In this document: positions 5,841-15,485 of the stretch, one piece after another
Layout: every line of letters starts with the position of its first letter
Numbering within the stretch: position 1 is the first letter of the stretch
Source of the DNA: a virus
Strand: one strand, 5' to 3'
Virus genome (UHGV): UHGV-0139735
DNA: 25,077 nucleotides
Notes under the pieces: generated by a model
The model's input: the letters and a program-made list of their open reading frames with translations, nothing else
Told to the model about the DNA's origin: nothing
Databases searched by the model: none
Made by a program: the position numbers and the translations under genes

Positions 5841-6667
5841 AAGAAATGCACCACGGAATTCATCATTTCCATGGGACGCCTGTCTGGGGAAGTGCTGGCG
5901 ACGTTCATCGTATTGCGGTGAGCGGAGCTGGCGCTTTCGTCTCCTATGTACGACCAGATCAGATTGCGGCGTCCATTCAGCACGCTCAGGTCGTCGGCAT
6001 TGATAACGGCGCATTTTCTGCATGGGTGCGTGGGCTAAAAATTAACTGGAGTGATTTTTATAAATGGCTCCTGAACTATTACCACCATCCTAAGGTCGCT
6101 TTTTTTGTCATTCCTGATGTTGTGGACGGAGGTGAACGTGACAATGATGCCCTGATAAACGAAGTTCCGAAAATGTTCTACGGGAAGGCAACTCCCGTCT
6201 GGCATCTGCACGAGTCAATCGATCGGCTTATCGAGCTATGTCGTGAATGGCCTCGTGTCTGCTTTGGATCGTCTGGTGAATATGCGGCTATCAGAACTGC
6301 GCACTGGCATCGTCGTATGCAGGACGCTTTTGAAGCAATTTATTGCCGACACAATTTCAAAACAGCTGTTCATGGTTTGCGCATGCTTGACGGTCGTGTG
6401 TTGGGAAATTACCCACTGGCGACTGCCGACAGTACAAATCTTGCCTGCAATGTCCCCAAATTTAATAGCAAATATCCTGAGCTGACGCGGGCTATTCAGG
6501 AGGCTGAGTATTCGCGCAATCTGACGGAAAAGGAGCTGAAAGCTGTCATTCTGAAAAACCGTTGCGCAATTTTAAAAGGTGCAATTGAAGCTGTTCGCCC
6601 ACCTTCAGTTTCTGATTGGCTGTCGAATGGTTTGCAGCCTTCACAGCTCGAACTGGAGATTGCGTAA
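5837..6667 (+). CDS. Hypothetical protein (~276 aa) translationally coupled to the methyltransferase; possible DNA-modification enzyme (weak, unverified TGT/DpdA-like motifs)
   Basis: GTG at 5837 overlaps the Dam stop; an alternative ATG lies at 5846. Contains [12 protein letters not shown], which resembles the DSGGF active-site strand of tRNA-guanine transglycosylases; this is eye-level similarity only. Confidence 0.5.
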
Positions 6668-9009
6668 TGAACTACAGCTATTCCTGGAATGCTGAGAAAA
6701 AAGCAATCAATCCTTACGTAGAGACGGAAGAGCAATCTTCAGTTTCTGCGCTTTCAAACCTGATCGCTCTGTACGCTGCCGATAACGAGCAGGAACAGCT
6801 GCGCCGCGAGGCACTGAGTGATCAGGTCTGGGAGCGTTATTTCTTTAATGAATCCCGTGATCCTGTCCAGCGCGAAATGGAGCAGGATAAGCTCATTAGT
6901 CGGGCAAAGCTGGCGCATGAGCAGCAGCGTTTTAATCCAGATATGGTCATTCTGGCGGACGTTAATGCCCAGCCTTCCCATATCAGCAAGCCACTGATGC
7001 AACGTATTGAATACTTCAGCAGCCTGGGCAGGCCAAAGGCTTATTCCCGCTATTTGCGTGAGACGATTAAGCCATGTCTGGAACGGCTGGAGCATGTACG
7101 CGACTGTCAGCTATCCACTTCTTTTCGCTTTATGGCAAGCCATGAAGGGCTGGACGGCCTGCTGATCCTGCCTGAAATGAGTCAGGATCAGGTGAAACGC
7201 CTGTCCACCCTGGTAGCTGCGCATATGAGCATGTGCCTTGATGCAGCTTGTGGCGATTTGTATGTCACCGATGACGTTAAGCCAGAAGAAATCCGCAAGA
7301 CATGGGAAAAGGTGGCAGCGGAAACCCTGCGTCTGGATGTCATCCCGCCTGCGTTTGAGCAACTCCGCCGGAAAAGAAACCGCCGTAAACCCGTGCCCTA
7401 TGAACTCATTCCGGGTTCGCTGGCGCGTATGTTGTGCGCTGACTGGTGGTACCGGAAATTATGGAAGATGCGTTGCGAATGGCGGGAAGAGCAGTTGCGT
7501 GCTGTCTGCCTGGTCAGCAAAAAAGCATCTCCCTATGTCAGCTATGAAGCCGTGATGCATAAACGTGAGCAGCGCCGTAAGTCGCTGGAGTTTTTTCGTT
7601 CTCATGAACTGGTGAACGAAGACGGCGACACGCTGGACATGGAGGATGTGGTAAACGCCAGCAGCAGCAACCCTGCGCATCGCCGCAATGAGATGATGGC
7701 CTGTGTTAAAGGCCTGGAGCTTATCGCGGAAATGCGCGGTGACTGCGCCGTTTTCTACACCATCACCTGTCCGTCACGTTTCCATTCCACGCTAAATAAT
7801 GGCAGGCCCAACCCAACTTGGACAAATGCGACGGTAAGACAAAGCAGTGATTATCTGGTCGGCATGTTTGCTGCATTTCGTAAGGCGATGCACAAAGCCG
7901 GATTGCGGTGGTATGGCGTGCGGGTGGCTGAGCCGCATCATGACGGTACAGTTCACTGGCACCTGTTGTGTTTTATGCGCAAAAAAGACCGCCGCGCCAT
8001 CACTGCATTACTGCGTAAGTTTGCCATCCGTGAAGACCGCGAGGAACTGGGCAATAACACTGGGCCGCGCTTTAAGTCTGAGTTGATTAACCCGCGCAAA
8101 GGTACGCCAACAAGCTACATCGCGAAATACATCAGTAAGAACATTGACGGGCGTGGTCTGGCTGGCGAGATCAGCAAGGAAACGGGGAAATCCCTGCGTG
8201 ATAATGCTGAATACGTTAATGCCTGGGCGTCTCTGCATCGTGTTCAGCAATTCCGCTTCTTTGGCATTCCGGGGCGTCAGGCTTACCGTGAACTGCGATT
8301 GCTGGCTGGTCAGGCGGCAAGGCAACAGGGGGACAAAAAAGCAGGTGCGCCGGTACTGGATAACCCGCGCCTTGATGCCATCCTGGCTGCTGCTGATGCT
8401 GGTTGTTTTGCCACCTACATCATGAAGCAGGGCGGCGTACTGGTTCCCCGCAAATATCACCTCATCAGAACCGCTTATGAAATCAACGAAGAGCCGACCG
8501 CCTATGGCGATCACGGCATTCGTATTTATGGCATCTGGTCACCTATTGCAGAGGGCAAGATCTGCACTCATGCCGTGAAGTGGAAAATGGTTCGTAAGGC
8601 CGTTGATGTTCAGGAGGCGGCAGCCGACCAGGGCGCTTGCGCCCCTTGGACTCGTGGCAATAACTGTCCCCCTGTTGAAAATTTGAACCAATCAGGGGGC
8701 GATTTACCAGAAGCCAGTGGGCCGGAGTCGCTGCCGGATCTTCATAATCTGAGCGCGAAGGAACGACGGGAGCTGACGGCGCGGCTGAGATTGGTAAAAC
8801 CTAAGCGGCGGAAAGGGTACAAACAGCAGATTAGCAATCATCAGCGCCAGCAGCTTGATGCTGAACTGAGGTCTAGGGGGTTCGATGCGAGTGATACCGA
8901 GGTGGATCTGCTTTTGCGTGGTGGCAGTATCCCGTCCGGGGCCGGGCTGCGTTTGTTCTATCGAAACCAGCGCCTGCAGGAAGATGATAAATGGCGGCAG
9001 TGGTACTAA
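6667..9009 (+). CDS. A: Rolling-circle replication initiator, P2 gpA family (HUH endonuclease)
   Basis: HUH motif ([10 protein letters not shown]) and two-tyrosine motif ([10 protein letters not shown]) as in P2 A protein. ATG at 6667 overlaps the upstream stop (TAATG); the ORF-track start at 6616 is possible but less likely. Confidence 0.85.
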
Positions 9010-9080: not shown

Positions 9081-9539
9081 CTATTTAGTTTTTTCAATCA
9101 TAGTGCTTTCGGCTTTTGAATATACACTATTAATAGTGGTGATTTTTGTAGTTAATGCTATACAAACTAGACTCAGAAGTAAGACACCAATTGATATTGT
9201 ATTGTTGCTGAGTATTATATGTAGACAAATAGAATAAATTGCAACGATGACTATTGCTACGAAAACAAAGATTGCCATTAAATTATGTGCTTTGATGTAG
9301 TCCTCAGGGGTTAATATGTAGCTTATGTTTATGATTATAAATAAAATTAAAAATGCTCCCCCAATCCATTTGGGTAGGGCTGTTTCTTTTTTTGATACTG
9401 CAGGTGTGGTTCTTGGGATCGATTCTACGAAGGATTTAAGATTTCCCATGTCAGTATTGTTTAATGCTGCACTTTCTGCTTCGAATTTTGAAACAGTGCC
9501 ATCAGGAAGGGTTGTAGTCCAGCTTATTTTTCCTGTCAT
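9081..9539 (-). CDS. Small integral membrane protein (152 aa: ~55-aa soluble N-terminus plus three predicted TM helices); cargo gene
   Basis: Hydrophobic segments WIGGAFLILFIIINISYIL, LMAIFVFVAIVIVAIYSICLHIIL and ISIGVLLLSLVCIALTT. Its start overlaps the upstream stop (ATGA). Strongly AT-rich versus the backbone. Confidence 0.65.
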   Translation of the reverse strand: MTGKISWTTTLPDGTVSKFEAESAALNNTDMGNLKSFVESIPRTTPAVSKKETALPKWIGGAFLILFIIINISYILTPEDYIKAHNLMAIFVFVAIVIVAIYSICLHIILSNNTISIGVLLLSLVCIALTTKITTINSVYSKAESTMIEKTK

Positions 9540-9910
9540 ACAACATCCCTTATTCTGAATATTCTATTAAAATCAATATCAACAGCAGAGTTCGACCACT
9601 CACTCTTTTGATTATCTTTAATTAGAATTGCTTTGTTCTCGTCAAAGATTATATTTGTACCACTAAACTCAATATGAGATAGGTCTCCTCTAAATATTTT
9701 TTGCTCAACGCTTTTGAATGCATCTTTTAATGATGCACACTCTTTTCTGAATAATGGTTTGGGGCTGTAAGTCCCTAAGTTTATAACTATTACGCCACTA
9801 CCATCTTTAGCAGGGTGAATGGAGAAAGATAGCGCTAATCCGTGATAGTGGGATTGTATTTTCTTCATTAATTTACGAACGTAATCATCATACCGCTTTC
9901 TATATATCAT
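9536..9910 (-). CDS. Hypothetical soluble protein (124 aa); first gene of the two-gene cargo operon
   Basis: Intact AT-rich ORF translationally coupled to the membrane-protein gene. No family recognised by eye. Confidence 0.6.
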   Translation of the reverse strand: MIYRKRYDDYVRKLMKKIQSHYHGLALSFSIHPAKDGSGVIVINLGTYSPKPLFRKECASLKDAFKSVEQKIFRGDLSHIEFSGTNIIFDENKAILIKDNQKSEWSNSAVDIDFNRIFRIRDVV

Positions 9911-10074
9911 TTTTTTCTTAATGGTTAGTTGTTTTTCGTATATTACAATACTAATAAATATATTGTCGATTCAAATAAAACGTTGTAGCCAAGCGGAAGA
10001 ATTTTAGTTTACGGATGGTTGTTTTTTGATCTCCATAGCCGAAGGCAATCTGAACTATAGTGATCATAAAAGTG

Positions 10075-10116
10075 TTTACATTCATGGAACTACGCATATA
10101 CTGTATATGTGTACAG
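10075..10116 (+). promoter_or_regulatory. SOS-regulated promoter: -35 TTTACA, 16-bp spacer, -10 TATACT, with an overlapping LexA box
   Basis: taCTGTATATGTGTACAGtg at 10101-10116 fits the LexA consensus CTGT-N8-ACAG and overlaps the -10 element and start site. It lies 33 bp upstream of the ATG at 10149. Confidence 0.7.
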
Positions 10117-10148
10117 TGCTTTCTGTGTGTTTGGTGATAGGAGGGAAG

Positions 10149-10337
10149 ATGCAAGACTATTTTTTGGAGTCGTTGAAGCTCCAGCGCATTGATTTTTTTG
10201 TCAAGCTTGTGGCGGCTAGTGAGTGTGATGATGAAGAGAAGCGACTGGCTATCCAGTGGGTTTCTGAGTTAACGGATGAGCTGATGGCAAAGATTCGTGC
10301 TCATGAATACAACCGCTCAATGGATCTTCCCAGTTAA
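10149..10337 (+). CDS. SOS-inducible small acidic protein (62 aa); candidate antirepressor-type (Tum-like role) gene
   Basis: Strong RBS (TAGGAGGG) 4 nt upstream of the ATG at 10149, directly downstream of the LexA-box promoter. The longer ORF-track version from 10026 would span the promoter itself. Confidence 0.6.
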   Translation: MQDYFLESLKLQRIDFFVKLVAASECDDEEKRLAIQWVSELTDELMAKIRAHEYNRSMDLPS

Positions 10338-10415
10338 CAGCAGGAACGTTGCTGGCGTGAGAACTAGCTTCTTACGTCAGCAAGGTTAAACAACGAGTAC
10401 AACGAGGCGTTAGCC

Positions 10416-10682
10416 ATGGGTAAATCCAACAGCAAATTCCAGACCGTTTATGAGGGGCAGGCGCTTGAACGTGACGAACTTGGCGGATGGGTTTTGTTTC
10501 AGCGTCGTGTAGAGTATGGCGGCAAGTACTGGATGGGAATAACCATGGATGATGTGTTTTTGTTTGGCTCCGATCATCCTGTATCAGGTAGTGAGGCGAT
10601 GGTCTTCATCATTGATTATGAGGGCGAGCAGCTCAGACGGTCTTTACCCGTTGGATACACCCCACAAATGCCGCTTTTCTGA
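10416..10682 (+). CDS. Hypothetical protein (88 aa), probably co-transcribed with the SOS-inducible ORF
   Basis: Backbone-like GC content; no terminator between the two ORFs; a terminator follows at 10750-10774. Confidence 0.5.
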   Translation: MGKSNSKFQTVYEGQALERDELGGWVLFQRRVEYGGKYWMGITMDDVFLFGSDHPVSGSEAMVFIIDYEGEQLRRSLPVGYTPQMPLF

Positions 10683-10749
10683 CAACCGGCTGGGTGCATG
10701 TCTATGCTGCATGAGATCGCATGATCGTTTGAGGATCGTTTTCGCTGAG

Positions 10750-10774
10750 GCCCGCCAGAACTGGCGGGCTTTTG
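10750..10774 (+). terminator. Rho-independent terminator (GCCCGCCAG-aa-CTGGCGGGC followed by TTTT)
   Basis: Perfect 9-bp GC-rich inverted repeat followed by a T-tract, 68 bp after the 88-aa ORF stop. Confidence 0.7.
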
Positions 10775-10818
10775 CTTATGTCATGCAGGTGCATGAAAAT
10801 CGCTCCATAAAGCGGGCA

Positions 10819-10837
10819 GGCGTGGCGGGGATACGAG
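10819..10837. other. Candidate cos (cohesive-end) site
   Basis: GGCGTGGCGGGGATACGAG followed by CGCGCGCTG. Its first 13 nt match the 19-nt cohesive end of 186 as I recall it (GGCGTGGCGGGGAAAGCAT; P2 is GGCGAGGCGGGGAAAGCAC). The recalled sequences were not checked against a reference. Confidence 0.4.
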
Positions 10838-10968
10838 CGCGCGCTGGGAGGTATAAGAATGAAGTACAATTAACTTCACTTTGTTGAGTAAAATGCTATA
10901 AGAATAATGCAAATTATTGAGTCCCATTAGTTCAAAACTTAGGGATATCTTATGTGAAAGGAGGTTAT

Positions 10969-12654
10969 ATGTTAGATAAATTGATTTTTAATTCAGGAAG
11001 TAATCCAACATCTAAATCTTCATTATCGGTTGACTTGACTCCATTGACAATTTTTGTGGGGCCGAATAATAGTGGTAAATCTAGAGCTTTAATCGATATA
11101 GAAAATCAACTGACAACCCGAAATGCAGCGCAGGGAGAAGTAATAAAACAGATATTAATCAAACCACTTTCTGAGGATGAAGCAAAAAAGGAAATTGAAT
11201 CTTTACAAGTTGAGCCAAACCAGGATGAAAAGCATGCGGGGCATGTTGTTTTATCTAGGCTAAACCTCCGTGGTGAAGGAATATCTAGGATTCTAGTGTA
11301 TTTGGATGGAATGTTAAGAGAATTCCAGCAACCCAATGAATTAAATCGGGAGCATCTATATCAATATTACTCGTTGCTGACTCTAAGGTTGGATGGTAGA
11401 AGTCGACTTTCCTTAACTTCAAGTCAAGGTTCATCCGATTTACAAGGAGAACCTACGAATAACCTTTCATTTCTTTTTAAAAATAATAAAGCAAGGATGG
11501 AGCTAAGAGATATCGTTTTTGATGCTTTCGGGAAGTATCTTGTTATTGATCCAACAAATATAGGTTATCTTAGAATTCGTCTTTCTGAGCGCGCTCCTGA
11601 GACTGAACAAGAAGAAAGAGGTTGGGATGAAAAGTCAGTGCTTTTTCATTCAAAAGCGTCATTGATTACAGAGGCTAGCGATGGTGTTAATGCTTTTGTT
11701 GGGATGATGATTTCGCTGATAGTTGGCTCACCAAAGGTGACTCTAATTGATGAGCCGGAAGCTTTTTTACATCCATCCTTATGCTCAAAGTTAGGAAAGG
11801 AAATATCTAGGATTAGTGCTCATAGTAATAAAAATGTGTTTATTTCAACGCATAGCGCTAATTTTTTAATGGGTTGTGTTCAAGGTAAAGTGCCATTGAA
11901 TATAGTTAGGCTTACTTTTGATGGTAAATCTGGTACGTCTAGATTACTAACAAAGGAACAATTGACGCCGCTCATGAGAAATCCGTTATTAAGATCTATT
12001 GGTGTGCTAAACGCATTGTTTTATAATTACGTTGTCGTTACTGAAGCGGATGCAGATAGGGCATTTTATCAAGAGATTAATGAGCGCTTATTGGCTGCTG
12101 GAGATCCTCGGGGTATTGAGGGATGCCTGTTTTTGAATGCTCAAAACAAACAAACTGTTTGGGATATAGTAAAACCCCTTCGTGAGCTAGGTATTCCCTG
12201 CGTTGGAGTGGTAGATATCGATATATTGAAGGAGGGAGGAGTTGTATGGAAAAAACCAATGCTTGGAGCTTTTTTTCCAGAAATGAAGCATGAAACTTTA
12301 GGTTTGGAAAGACAAAAGCTTTTTCAAGCCTTCAAAAATACGAATAAAAATATGAAGACAGATGGGGGCCTCTCCTTGTTATCGGGTTCAGATAAAACCG
12401 CCTGCTCTGAGTTTTTTAAATCCCTTTCAGATTATGGGGTTTTTGTCGTTCCAACGGGCGAGATCGAGTCTTGGTTGCAAAATCTTGAAATAGGTCGAGG
12501 AAAGAATACTTGGTTAACAAGTATTTTCGAGAAGATGGGGGATGATCCTAATGATGAATCATATGTGAAGCCATCTGAAGGTGATGTTTGGGATTTTATT
12601 GGGAATATAAAGCACTGGTTGGTTAACCCTGAAAGGAAGGGTATTCCCGAGTGA
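10969..12654 (+). CDS. OLD-family ABC-type ATPase with C-terminal TOPRIM nuclease domain (P2 Old-like anti-phage defence protein)
   Basis: 561 aa from the ATG at 10969 (RBS AAAGGAGG). Walker A GPNNSGKS, Walker B/D-loop VTLIDEPEAFLHPS, H-loop ISTHSAN, and C-terminal Toprim-like acidic motifs VVVTEADAD and VGVVDID. AT-rich relative to the backbone. Confidence 0.7.
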   Translation: MLDKLIFNSGSNPTSKSSLSVDLTPLTIFVGPNNSGKSRALIDIENQLTTRNAAQGEVIKQILIKPLSEDEAKKEIESLQVEPNQDEKHAGHVVLSRLNLRGEGISRILVYLDGMLREFQQPNELNREHLYQYYSLLTLRLDGRSRLSLTSSQGSSDLQGEPTNNLSFLFKNNKARMELRDIVFDAFGKYLVIDPTNIGYLRIRLSERAPETEQEERGWDEKSVLFHSKASLITEASDGVNAFVGMMISLIVGSPKVTLIDEPEAFLHPSLCSKLGKEISRISAHSNKNVFISTHSANFLMGCVQGKVPLNIVRLTFDGKSGTSRLLTKEQLTPLMRNPLLRSIGVLNALFYNYVVVTEADADRAFYQEINERLLAAGDPRGIEGCLFLNAQNKQTVWDIVKPLRELGIPCVGVVDIDILKEGGVVWKKPMLGAFFPEMKHETLGLERQKLFQAFKNTNKNMKTDGGLSLLSGSDKTACSEFFKSLSDYGVFVVPTGEIESWLQNLEIGRGKNTWLTSIFEKMGDDPNDESYVKPSEGDVWDFIGNIKHWLVNPERKGIPE

Positions 12655-12661
12655 GTTTATT

Positions 12662-12684
12662 GAGCCGCTTTAGCGGCTCTTTTC
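12662..12684 (+). terminator. Terminator hairpin (gagccgc-ttta-gcggctc followed by TTTTC) between the convergent OLD-like and Q genes
   Basis: 7-bp perfect stem and T-run directly after the OLD-like stop codon; only 36 bp separate the two convergent stop codons. Confidence 0.65.
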
Positions 12685-12690
12685 ATATTC

Positions 12691-13722
12691 CTATGCAAGG
12701 TTATATTCATTAAATTGCATTATTGGCTCCTTTATCCATTCATTTACTTCTTGAAGCCTTTTTTGCAATGGAATTAGCTCATTACGGACAAAGACCCTGC
12801 TGGCTTTCTCCACATCCCCAAATCCCCCGACATTATTTGGCATTATCCCCATCATTTGTGGCGGCACACGATGCGCAGCCATCATGTCATCCCGGCTCAC
12901 GTTCTTGATATTCAGAAACTCATCCTTCGCCGCGACTTCTGACAACGGGATGATCTGAAGCCCGTCCTTTTTGCCGTTAGGCGAGTACATAAACAGGTTG
13001 CGGAAGTTGCCAGGGCCTTTGGCGCTTTTCATCGCATTGCGGAGGTTGTTCACATCCTCCTGGTTCTGCGCGGCATCGGTCATGTACATGATGAAGCCTG
13101 CATGACTGCCGTTAATGTAATACTTCCGGCGGAACAGCGTGGCGGACTCGTTGAGCAGGGCCGACGGAATGGCAGAAAGATAACCTGGCAGGCCGTAGAT
13201 CTCCTGGTTGATGTCAGGTTCCATCAGATGAAAAATGCTGCCTTTCGTGAACTGATACGGCTGGGTTGTCATACCGTATTGCACAAACCAGTAGGTATCC
13301 AGGTCTAACCCGCGTCGGGTGTATTTTGCCAGCGCAGGCTCAAGGGCTATAACTTCACCGAATCGGTTCGTGCGTTTCTCCAGGTAGGCGTTACCAAATA
13401 CCAGATAGTCCTGCACAAAACGCGAAAAAGCCTGTTGGCTGAGCAGCGGATGAGGGATATAGGTACTGGTCAGAATGTTGCACTTTACTGCAATCGGGGA
13501 ACTGTGATGCACGGCAGCCCGGAAGGTGCGCGCCAGTCCGTCAAAACTTACGGGTGGCTCATACCAGCGATCCGTCTGTACGCATTCCACATAGTCCAGC
13601 AGTTCGCGGCGGTCCAGTACAGGAATGGGATCACCAAAGCTGAAAGCTTCGGCTGAAGTTTGATTTTTATGCTGGCTCCGTTTCGTCGCAGCAGCGCGGT
13701 TTTTCTTACTCTTTCCCATCAA
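12691..13722 (-). CDS. Q: Portal protein (P2 gpQ)
   Basis: 343 aa (P2 Q is ~344 aa), located downstream of and overlapping the terminase ATPase gene, in P2 order. Confidence 0.85.
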   Translation of the reverse strand: MMGKSKKNRAAATKRSQHKNQTSAEAFSFGDPIPVLDRRELLDYVECVQTDRWYEPPVSFDGLARTFRAAVHHSSPIAVKCNILTSTYIPHPLLSQQAFSRFVQDYLVFGNAYLEKRTNRFGEVIALEPALAKYTRRGLDLDTYWFVQYGMTTQPYQFTKGSIFHLMEPDINQEIYGLPGYLSAIPSALLNESATLFRRKYYINGSHAGFIMYMTDAAQNQEDVNNLRNAMKSAKGPGNFRNLFMYSPNGKKDGLQIIPLSEVAAKDEFLNIKNVSRDDMMAAHRVPPQMMGIMPNNVGGFGDVEKASRVFVRNELIPLQKRLQEVNEWIKEPIMQFNEYNLA

Positions 13723-15485
13723 AAAATCTCCACAATATTGCTGGTATTGGCGGACTCGCCCTGCAGCGGTTCGTTAAACAGTGCGTGCATTGTTGCCCAG
13801 GCCAGATCGGCGTGGCTGGCTTCTTCGCTGCGGCTAGCTTCATAGGTCGGGCGGTTGCCGCTGGCGGTGGTGGCGCGACGGATTGCCATGAATGACTGCG
13901 CAATGTCGGTGTGCCCGGCGTCAAACTCCAGACGGCGGTGGCTGATAATGTCGTAGGCCTTGAGTACCAGGGCGTTTTTAACGTTGGGGTTGTAGACAAA
14001 CTCCCGGACGGCAGGAAAGAACGCTTTCACGTTCTCATAAACCCCGTGACCGACGCCTGTCGAGTCGATGCCGATATAGGTCACGTTGTACTGCTCGGTC
14101 AGTTTTTTGATTGCATCAGCCTGGGCGCGGAAGTCCATCCCGCGCCACTGGTGACGCTCAAGAATGCGAAACTTACCGCCTGGCACGGCTGGCGGTGCCA
14201 CCACCACGCATCCGGCGCTGTCGCCATTCTGCGTACCTTTTGCCGGGTCATAACCGATCCACACCTCGCGCCAGCCAAACGGGCGCAGGGCCAGTGCATG
14301 AAAGTCGGTCCAGACTTCCCAACTGTCCACCATGCACGCCTGCAGCTCGCTGAGCGGAAACACGGATGCGAGATCGTCCACAAACTCGCACATCAGCAGG
14401 TTCTGGTATTCGTCCGGGCTGTACTCCATGCGTAGCTGGTCGAGGTCGAACAGGTTACAGCCGCCGCGCACCGCATCTTCCACGGTGACTATCTGGCGGT
14501 ATTGCCCGTCTGCGCACAGCAGGCCGGGGGCCAGATTGCTGTGGGACAGGTCGATGTCCACCTTATCGGCTTTGTTGCGCCCACGGTTGAACAGCGCACC
14601 GGACCAGAACGGATAAGCACTGTGTGTCAGACTGGATGGCGTGGAAAAATAGGTTTGTCGCCATTTTTTGTGAATAGCCATACCGGAAGCCACTTTGCGC
14701 AGCTCCTGGAATTTCGGTATCCAGAAATATTCATCCAGATACAGGTTGCCGTGGTAACTCTGGGCCGTGCGGGCATTGGTGCCGAGGAAGTAAAGCGTGG
14801 CCCCGTTGGGAAGCACCATCGGATCGCCTTTCAGCTCCACTTCCACTTCTTTGGCGAAGTCGATGATGTACTGCTTAAAGACGTGGGCCTGTGCTTTGCT
14901 GGCGGAAAGGAAAATCTGGTTACGTCCGGTCAGCAGGGCGTCAATCAGGGCTTCACGGGCAAAGTAAAAGGTCGCGCCGATCTGGCGTGACTTCAGCAGG
15001 TTGCGGATGCGGTTGGTTTTTCCGGCTTCCCACCAGTGGCGCTGGTAGTTGAACATGGAGGAATGGAAGATTTCTTCCAGCTTCTCAATCTGTTCATCGG
15101 TGAAAACATTCTTTTCCGGCTGACGGCGCGGGCCTTTGTTGCGGTTGGCGACGTTTGGGTTTAAGTCGGCTTCGTTGCCGCCATTGTTAAACTTGCCGAT
15201 CCGCGCGTGGCGTTCCGACTGGCGCGCCAGCAGGTCAATCTCTTTGAAATCTTTCCCTTCTTTGTGCTCCTTCATAATGAGCTGGCAGTAGCGTGCGGCG
15301 GTGGTGAGCTGCATCTGATCCAGCGGCCCATAGTCACCCCACTTGTCGCGTTTTTTCCAGCTGTGAACGGTTGCAACTTTCTCGCCCAGCATTTCAGCAA
15401 TGCGGGCTACGCGGTATCCCTGAAAGTACAGCAGCATGGCCTGCCGACGGGGATCGAGATCTGCGGGTGTCAGTGTGGTGTTCAT
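13719..15485 (-). CDS. P: Terminase large (ATPase) subunit (P2 gpP)
   Basis: 588 aa (P2 P is ~590 aa), divergent from the scaffold gene O as in P2. Confidence 0.85.
   Translation of the reverse strand: MNTTLTPADLDPRRQAMLLYFQGYRVARIAEMLGEKVATVHSWKKRDKWGDYGPLDQMQLTTAARYCQLIMKEHKEGKDFKEIDLLARQSERHARIGKFNNGGNEADLNPNVANRNKGPRRQPEKNVFTDEQIEKLEEIFHSSMFNYQRHWWEAGKTNRIRNLLKSRQIGATFYFAREALIDALLTGRNQIFLSASKAQAHVFKQYIIDFAKEVEVELKGDPMVLPNGATLYFLGTNARTAQSYHGNLYLDEYFWIPKFQELRKVASGMAIHKKWRQTYFSTPSSLTHSAYPFWSGALFNRGRNKADKVDIDLSHSNLAPGLLCADGQYRQIVTVEDAVRGGCNLFDLDQLRMEYSPDEYQNLLMCEFVDDLASVFPLSELQACMVDSWEVWTDFHALALRPFGWREVWIGYDPAKGTQNGDSAGCVVVAPPAVPGGKFRILERHQWRGMDFRAQADAIKKLTEQYNVTYIGIDSTGVGHGVYENVKAFFPAVREFVYNPNVKNALVLKAYDIISHRRLEFDAGHTDIAQSFMAIRRATTASGNRPTYEASRSEEASHADLAWATMHALFNEPLQGESANTSNIVEIF

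Follow-up and report, generated by a model that had tools for sequence, protein, structure and literature searches.

Proteins of the OLD family join an N-terminal ABC-type ATPase to a C-terminal nuclease domain of the Toprim type, and a recent scheme sorts them into four classes, of which Class 1, the stand-alone proteins, has a length cut-off of about 500-600 amino acids (Patel & Seed 2025). Class 1 proteins have been described as rare and are little studied. Only four of them have been characterized, namely Old of phage P2, Ts OLD of Thermus scotoductus, Vc OLD of Vibrio cholerae and YbjD (OldB) of Escherichia coli, and these four differ in their trigger, their target and the role of ATP. 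The tetramer of P2 Old is inactive; when it is destabilized to dimers, the Toprim site opens, and the active form cuts tRNA-Thr(UGU) in its anticodon stem and brings translation to a halt. Its triggers are aberrant DNA in RecBCD-deficient cells and hairpins of single-stranded DNA at the origin of lambda. Vc OLD introduces nicks into DNA and stops the phage from replicating, in a RecBCD-independent manner. Anti-phage phenotypes are on record for P2 Old, Vc OLD and YbjD, while Ts OLD has been studied in vitro only. Here we describe a further protein of this type, which is encoded in the virus genome UHGV-0139735 (25,077 nucleotides, hereafter the window), a 186/P2-like prophage of E. coli. The gene at 10969-12654 (plus strand, ATG start) codes for a 561-residue OLD-family ATPase/Toprim nuclease and has identical coordinates in RefSeq, where the product is called "ATP-dependent nuclease" (WP_001682736.1). 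We think that it is probably a stand-alone OLD defence cassette, situated in that arm of the gpA-gpQ hotspot that extends from the cohesive-end site (cos) to the portal gene.

Catalytic motifs and predicted fold

From a first inspection of the DNA, the original prediction had ascribed a complete set of OLD motifs to the protein. Indeed, all of these motifs are found in the translation and are invariant across 35 homologues. The Walker A motif or P-loop, G31PNNSGKS38 with the lysine K37, is encoded at 11059-11082, the Walker B motif together with the D-loop, L259IDEPEAFLHPS270 (D261, E262, H268), at 11743-11778, and the H-loop, S293THS296 (H295), at 11845-11856, all on the plus strand. The second of these aligns with IIEEPEMYLHP in Ts OLD and with IDEPELYLHPS in P2 Old. 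An N-terminal ABC-type ATPase with Walker A, Walker B and the histidines of the D-loop and the H-loop is thus present.

It is followed by a Toprim domain of the OLD type (residues ~350-512, encoded at 12016-12504 on the plus strand), which contains the motifs E359-x3-D363 (within TEADAD), D416-I-D418 and T496-G-E498-I-E500. In Ts OLD, the catalytic set of Class 1 consists of E377, D431 and D433 at metal A, of D381, S478 and E480 at metal B, and of R487 (PMC7049728). By alignment, the corresponding ligands of the window protein are E359, D416 and D418 for metal A and D363, T496 and E498 (plus E500) for metal B. Among the 35 homologues, E359, D363, D416, D418 and E500 are invariant, and T496 and E498 are conserved. 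Either R510 or K512, which align with the GKK of P2 Old, is a candidate for the transition-state residue. The C-terminal part has the OLD-specific Toprim architecture with a two-metal site and, by alignment, the arginine or lysine.

Pfam matches comprise AAA_15, AAA_21 and OLD-like_TOPRIM, the Toprim part of which covers residues 350-418. Among the PADLOC models, Old scores best (1.3e-20) with a match that extends from Walker B across the Toprim domain, and the GajA, AriAB and retron I-B ATPase-Toprim models score far weaker. Single-sequence and profile searches against the PDB returned only weak ABC-transporter matches and two short stretches of the Ts OLD structure 6p74, and because these searches were so weak, a structure prediction was needed. 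The AlphaFold model, which was calculated from an alignment, reached a predicted local distance difference test (pLDDT) value of 89 and a predicted template modelling (pTM) score of 0.87; it contains an insert with short helices (residues 112-187) within the ATPase fold. The top PDB match of this model in Foldseek was again 6p74, that is, Class 1 Ts OLD (E 8e-11). It was followed mainly by the OLD protein of retron Eco8 and then, lower down, by GajA chains, with structures of SMC heads interleaved. In its fold, the Toprim domain comes nearest to those OLD proteins whose structures have been solved.

The cos site and the side of insertion

In P2, the old gene (31620-33380, minus strand) is bordered by tin/A and cosR, and the distance from cosL to the portal gene Q is only 186 bp, with the terminator tQ included. 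The counterpart of P2 cosL/cosR in the window is the 19-nt cohesive-end sequence GGCGTGGCGGGGATACGAG at 10819-10837. It aligns with the P2 cohesive end GGCGAGGCGGGGAAAGCAC, and the flanks are conserved on both sides, as P2 reads ...GGTGCATTAAAACCGCCCCGTGAAGCGGGCG/GGCGAGGCGGGGAAAGCAC/TGCGCGCTG... across its joined ends and the window ...GGTGCATGAAAATCGCTCCATAAAGCGGGCA/GGCGTGGCGGGGATACGAG/CGCGCGCTG... at the same site. The annotated cos of phage Cartapus is almost identical to that of the window.

The site was then followed through related prophages, for which 80 IMG/VR contigs with a portal protein at least 93% identical were surveyed; in 72 of them, a cos core could be located downstream of Q. 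A conserved cos module, which is common to all 72 loci, extends from 10694 to 10858 according to blastn breakpoints and a by-eye alignment with the cos regions of P2 and Cartapus. The position that had originally been assigned to cos could therefore be validated. Together with the layout of P2, this also substantiates the claim that the OLD gene is located on the Q side of cos, whereas P2 old is found on the A side. A position of cos elsewhere was considered and rejected, since each of the 72 loci has a single copy of the core downstream of Q, with both flanks conserved. Likewise rejected was the identity of the OLD gene with the standard P2 old locus, as it lies on the Q side of cos and shares 24% identity with P2 Old over half of the protein.

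The cassette and its slot

The borders of the inserted DNA are sharply defined. Homology to the 72 related prophages stops at 10843-10858, that is, the cargo starts 6-21 bp past the cohesive end, and it resumes at 12696-12761 (blastn breakpoints). From these breakpoints follows a cassette of about 1.85 kb (~10846-12695) that carries its own 5' region and its own terminator, and with such precise boundaries the cassette can be cloned together with its native control region. The 5' region (10846-10968, plus strand) is specific to the cassette and has no homologous sequence in the other prophages. It ends with the Shine-Dalgarno sequence AAGGAGG at 10958-10964 (plus strand), 4 nt before the ATG, which confirms the strong ribosome-binding site of the original prediction. 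The described AT-richness is real as well: the GC content of the OLD gene is 38.2%, compared to 54.6% in Q and P and 53.6% in A. Downstream, the gene is convergent with the portal gene Q (12691-13722, minus strand), which forms the right-hand boundary of the slot. The stop codon of the OLD gene ends at 12654, and the 36 bp up to the Q stop codon (12691-12693) contain, as had been noticed from the letters alone, a terminator hairpin on the plus strand (12662-12679, GAGCCGC-TTTA-GCGGCTC), with a 7-bp stem of which 6 pairs are GC, the loop TTTA and the T-run TTTTCATATT directly 3' of it. It was also observed that homology restarts 3-70 bp inside the 3' end of Q, so that an exchange of the cassette swaps the last Q codons and the Q terminator too.

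The cos-Q interval is used for cargo in nearly all related prophages. The distance from the Q stop codon to cos amounts to 521-3524 bp in 71 of the 72 loci, which means that the slot is filled in these, and is P2-like (185 bp) in a single contig. All large open reading frames (ORFs) of the interval run from cos to Q and are convergent with Q. Clusters of cargo are side-specific, and those of the cos-Q interval never occurred on the A side in this sample. Ten cargo representatives were scanned, all of which match PADLOC models of defence or candidate-defence systems, namely AbiU, PDC-S49, NsnA/GmrSD-like, a type II-A retron reverse transcriptase, a type I-C retron reverse transcriptase-Toprim protein (Ec67 type), ShosA, PDC-S06, PtuA/PDC-M01A, a fused AriA/Old-like protein and a helicase. 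The OLD gene itself was found in none of the 80 IMG/VR loci. In the E. coli strain 1105, the identical OLD gene is combined with a different A side (a hypothetical, a DinI-like and a second hypothetical gene), with a breakpoint at ~10694, and this pairing indicates that the two arms that flank cos assort independently.

The original prediction had proposed a second cargo slot flanking cos. Such a slot exists, but it was known before: the cos-Q position has figured as a hotspot since 1996, for which PMC5694545 cites Dodd & Egan 1996 and Nakayama 1999. Rousset 2022 defines the P2 hotspot as the whole cos-proximal region from gpA to gpQ, and Table S5A of that work already holds the arrangement of the window (WP_063090871, WP_001682736, WP_063090872, WP_127699595 and WP_063090869). 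In its Table S5B, the OLD protein is listed as system 95, "AAA_15/AAA_21/SMC_N", with 34 occurrences and without comment. The slot and the gene are hence on record, and the finding is correct and fairly ordinary. What can be added is that in the 186-like lineage the cos-Q arm, not the A-side arm as in P2, is the main defence slot. The survey of this slot is useful for mining P2-like prophages; it refines existing knowledge and does not establish a new principle.

A widespread family of about 560 residues

At E <= 1e-30, 895 clusters (50% identity) match the protein, and among the best 150 of these nearly all align end to end, with lengths of 550-565 residues. End-to-end identities of 44-62% are found across Proteobacteria, Bacteroidota, Cyanobacteria, Firmicutes, Planctomycetota and Acidobacteriota. 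The family has an invariant signature that consists of TEADADRAFYQEINERL, followed by NAQNKQTVWD and by the Toprim motif VDID..KEGG. A tblastn search of a collection of sequenced phages returned only P2 Old and one protein of a Mycobacterium prophage, both with 24-26% identity. The window protein is a member, carried naturally by a phage, of an OLD clade that is large, highly conserved and experimentally unexplored.

Closer homologues (64-88% identical) were observed in Cronobacter dublinensis, Hafnia alvei and Pantoea, where they reside within decayed P2-like remnants. A cos-like stretch survives in the Cronobacter and Hafnia remnants, which occupy the same rcdA-ybjL site as the E. coli prophage, and in Hafnia and Pantoea a portal fragment and the Ogr gene still adjoin the homologue. 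The location of these homologues suggests that the gene is kept after the prophage has decayed. The Pantoea remnant is adjoined by another AAA_15/AAA_21 ATPase, an AAA_23 protein and a DNA methylase, and this neighbourhood may be a small defence island.

It is tempting to go one step further and to regard the ~560-residue family as a distinct, uncharacterized clade of stand-alone OLD proteins that has a trigger or target of its own compared to P2 Old, Vc OLD and YbjD. We put this forward as a tentative idea that is somewhat more likely to be wrong than right. If it applied, P2-like phages would spread the family by means of their cos-Q slot, and the host would retain the gene once the prophage has decayed.

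Proposed function

The cassette is a self-contained cargo, or "moron", in the cos-to-portal arm of the hotspot, and its enzyme combines an ABC ATPase of the SMC/Rad50-like kind with a Toprim nuclease of the OLD type, in which the two-metal site is complete. We propose that the gene is expressed from the lysogen by a promoter next to cos and that the protein is then held as an auto-inhibited oligomer. On sensing a cue from an infecting phage, the ATPase module would open the Toprim site, and the nuclease would cut nucleic acid and thereby stop the infection, probably at the expense of the cell. Its target could be tRNA, which P2 Old and PARIS cleave, or DNA, the substrate of Vc OLD, Ts OLD and GajA, and at present we would not choose between the two with confidence. 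This mechanism is supported by the intact catalytic residues and by the abundance of defence systems in the slot, and we consider a role in defence likely.

Several points weigh against this view. First, the consensus sigma-70 promoter scan gave no site at threshold between cos and the ATG. The promoter that the original prediction had ascribed to the gene therefore finds no backing there; a looser scan yielded one plausible candidate, an extended -10 promoter on the plus strand at 10875-10902, which is composed of TTCACT (10875-10880), a 16-nt spacer and TGcTATAAG (10894-10902). Second, the Pfam Toprim match is marginal, with a score of 23.5 bits at a threshold of 23.2 bits. Third, the sensing of the trigger may differ from that of P2 Old, as the N-terminal 250 residues of the two proteins are not alignable beyond the P-loop. 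In E. coli YbjD, the Toprim domain was dispensable. Fourth, in our literature search no paper mentioned the accession WP_001682736.1, and no experiment is on record for the protein, which Rousset 2022 only catalogues, or for any close relative.

Finally, guilt by association is weak outside the Enterobacterales, since, of ten sampled neighbours of chromosomal homologues, six were clearly housekeeping genes, two were defence genes and the remaining two were uninformative. This last observation fits an alternative in which the protein is not a defence factor at all, but an ATPase-nuclease for nucleic-acid maintenance or housekeeping that is carried by prophages, or else a selfish or addictive gene. 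The unusually strong conservation of the family across phyla and the persistence of the gene in prophage remnants would fit such a role, and OLD-family proteins with non-defence functions exist, for example the archaeal Cran1. Within E. coli, however, the distribution is patchy and single-copy and the composition AT-rich, the slot is filled almost entirely with defence systems, and the characterized bacterial stand-alone OLD proteins P2 Old, Vc OLD and YbjD all confer anti-phage phenotypes. We therefore regard a non-defence function as unlikely and prefer the interpretation of the gene as a defence cassette.

Single-gene or two-component system

The question whether the window protein is a single-gene Old-type or a fused two-component-type enzyme could not be answered by eye in the original prediction. 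Its length of 561 residues fits the cut-off of Class 1, and most of the listed homologues are 550-565 residues long. For a search for partners, 80 loci with homologues (44-62% identity) from Proteobacteria, Bacteroidota, Cyanobacteria, Firmicutes, Planctomycetota, Acidobacteriota and other phyla were compared and the ORFs next to them were clustered. No conserved partner gene was found among the neighbours in these 80 loci. The sole recurring neighbour was the methionine synthase MetH, in Pasteurellaceae and one Duganella, and this is synteny and not partnership. In terms of the four classes, the window protein is an OLD nuclease of the stand-alone type, Class 1.

The fused PARIS type (Class 4) deserves a closer look, as it would combine an AriA-like ATPase and an AriB-like Toprim domain in one chain, be released or activated by an anti-restriction protein of the phage and cleave tRNA. 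Fused PARIS proteins are known from the same hotspot (system 164 of Rousset 2022 and cargo cluster c90 of our survey), and the window protein matches the PADLOC models for AriA (1.6e-15 and 5.5e-15) and AriAB (9.5e-11). Yet these matches are limited to the Walker B region of the ATPase (residues 176-305), whereas the match to the Old model reaches through the Toprim domain. In addition, DUF4435, the Toprim domain of the AriB type, is not among the Pfam matches of the protein, a DUF4435 gene was not found beside it either, and the best full-length structural match is Ts OLD. Among the models of Old, GajA and AriA/AriB, Old is best. We read the protein as a single-gene type and not as a fused PARIS, which we consider quite improbable here.

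Gabija GajA (Class 2) and the retron effectors (Class 3) were rejected as class assignments, as an adjacent gajB or a reverse transcriptase gene with msr-msd non-coding RNA was not found. The last alternative, a GajA-like or retron-effector-like protein whose partner (a helicase, or a reverse transcriptase with multicopy single-stranded DNA) is encoded elsewhere, could point to the strong structural matches to GajA and retron Eco8 OLD and to the PADLOC matches with the GajA and ATPase-Toprim_I-B models, but it is highly unlikely, because no UvrD-like helicase or reverse transcriptase gene adjoins the OLD gene in the window or in the 80 homologue loci, no reverse transcriptase ORF occurs between A and Q, the Rfam search returned no retron or other RNA, and the cassette moves as a single gene between differing A-side contexts.

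Prophage setting and neighbouring genes

With 100% identity, the region 10400-13000 is found in 15 complete E. coli chromosomes, such as that of strain EC11, in which the prophage is flanked by rcdA and, at its other end, by the ybjL side of the chromosome. The OLD gene is carried by 19 of 5,426 complete E. coli genomes and is thus uncommon. In the matched locus of E. coli MB30 (NZ_CP073968.1), the transposase of the IS5-like element ISKpn26 is annotated.

To the left of cos, the replication gene A (6616-9009, plus strand) is followed by an AT-rich operon of two genes (9081-9910, minus strand) and by two small plus-strand ORFs (10026-10337 and 10416-10682). The operon has a GC content of 33% and consists of ORFs of 124 residues (9536-9910) and 152 residues (9081-9539) with a 4-nt overlap, the latter with several hydrophobic stretches that resemble transmembrane segments. 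Neither the operon nor the small ORFs have a Pfam or PADLOC match, and the sole match of the operon is phrog_18061, a family of unknown function. The operon is probably a separate cargo in the classical tin/old arm. Beyond the two plus-strand ORFs and just left of cos, a strong terminator-like hairpin of the plus strand was observed at 10750-10769 (GCCCGCCAG-AAC-TGGCGGGC, followed by TTTTGC up to 10775); it has a folding energy of -23.8 kcal/mol with a z-score of -4.9 and was not listed by the terminator scan. On the other side of the slot, Q is followed by the terminase gene P (13719-15485, minus strand).

Comparison with known systems

In Rousset 2022 the protein had received neither an OLD nor a Toprim call, and system 95 was outside the cloned set. 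P2 Old is among the nearest described systems. In BLASTP, the match to it spans residues 254-544, together with the P-loop, at only 24% identity, and hhalign reports a probability of 94.8% over 239 columns, with the DxD motif, the S/T-G-D/E-I-E motif and the basic residue aligned. Both proteins are single-gene fusions of ABC-ATPase and Toprim (586 residues for P2 Old versus 561), and both are cargo of the gpA-gpQ hotspot of a P2-like phage and are transcribed away from cos. Walker B with the D-loop, the H-loop, ExxxD/E, DxD, S/T-G-D/E-I-E and the basic residue can all be aligned, and in both proteins a long helical insert separates the DxD strand from the last strand of the Toprim domain. Apart from the N-terminal 250 residues, which align at the P-loop only, the window protein differs from P2 Old in the lack of a DUF2813 signature in Pfam, and its gene lies on the opposite side of cos and without a tin partner.

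Ts OLD, the best full-length structural match, agrees with the window protein in its set of residues for metal A, metal B and the basic position. Its sequence similarity is hardly detectable, with a profile E-value of 9e-4 over two short stretches, and it lacks the long helical insert of the window protein. The low whole-chain TM-score to 6p74 of 0.36-0.39 means that the domain arrangement or an inserted domain is unlike. Vc OLD and YbjD are comparable as stand-alone chromosomal OLD genes with anti-phage phenotypes. In Vc OLD, an asparagine takes the place of the serine or threonine in the metal B triad, whereas the window family keeps this residue as Thr496; to YbjD no specific relationship was detected by hhalign (probability 2%). 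With the other cargo of the cos-Q arm, finally, the OLD gene has in common its orientation and its place, which is bounded by cos and the portal gene's terminator.

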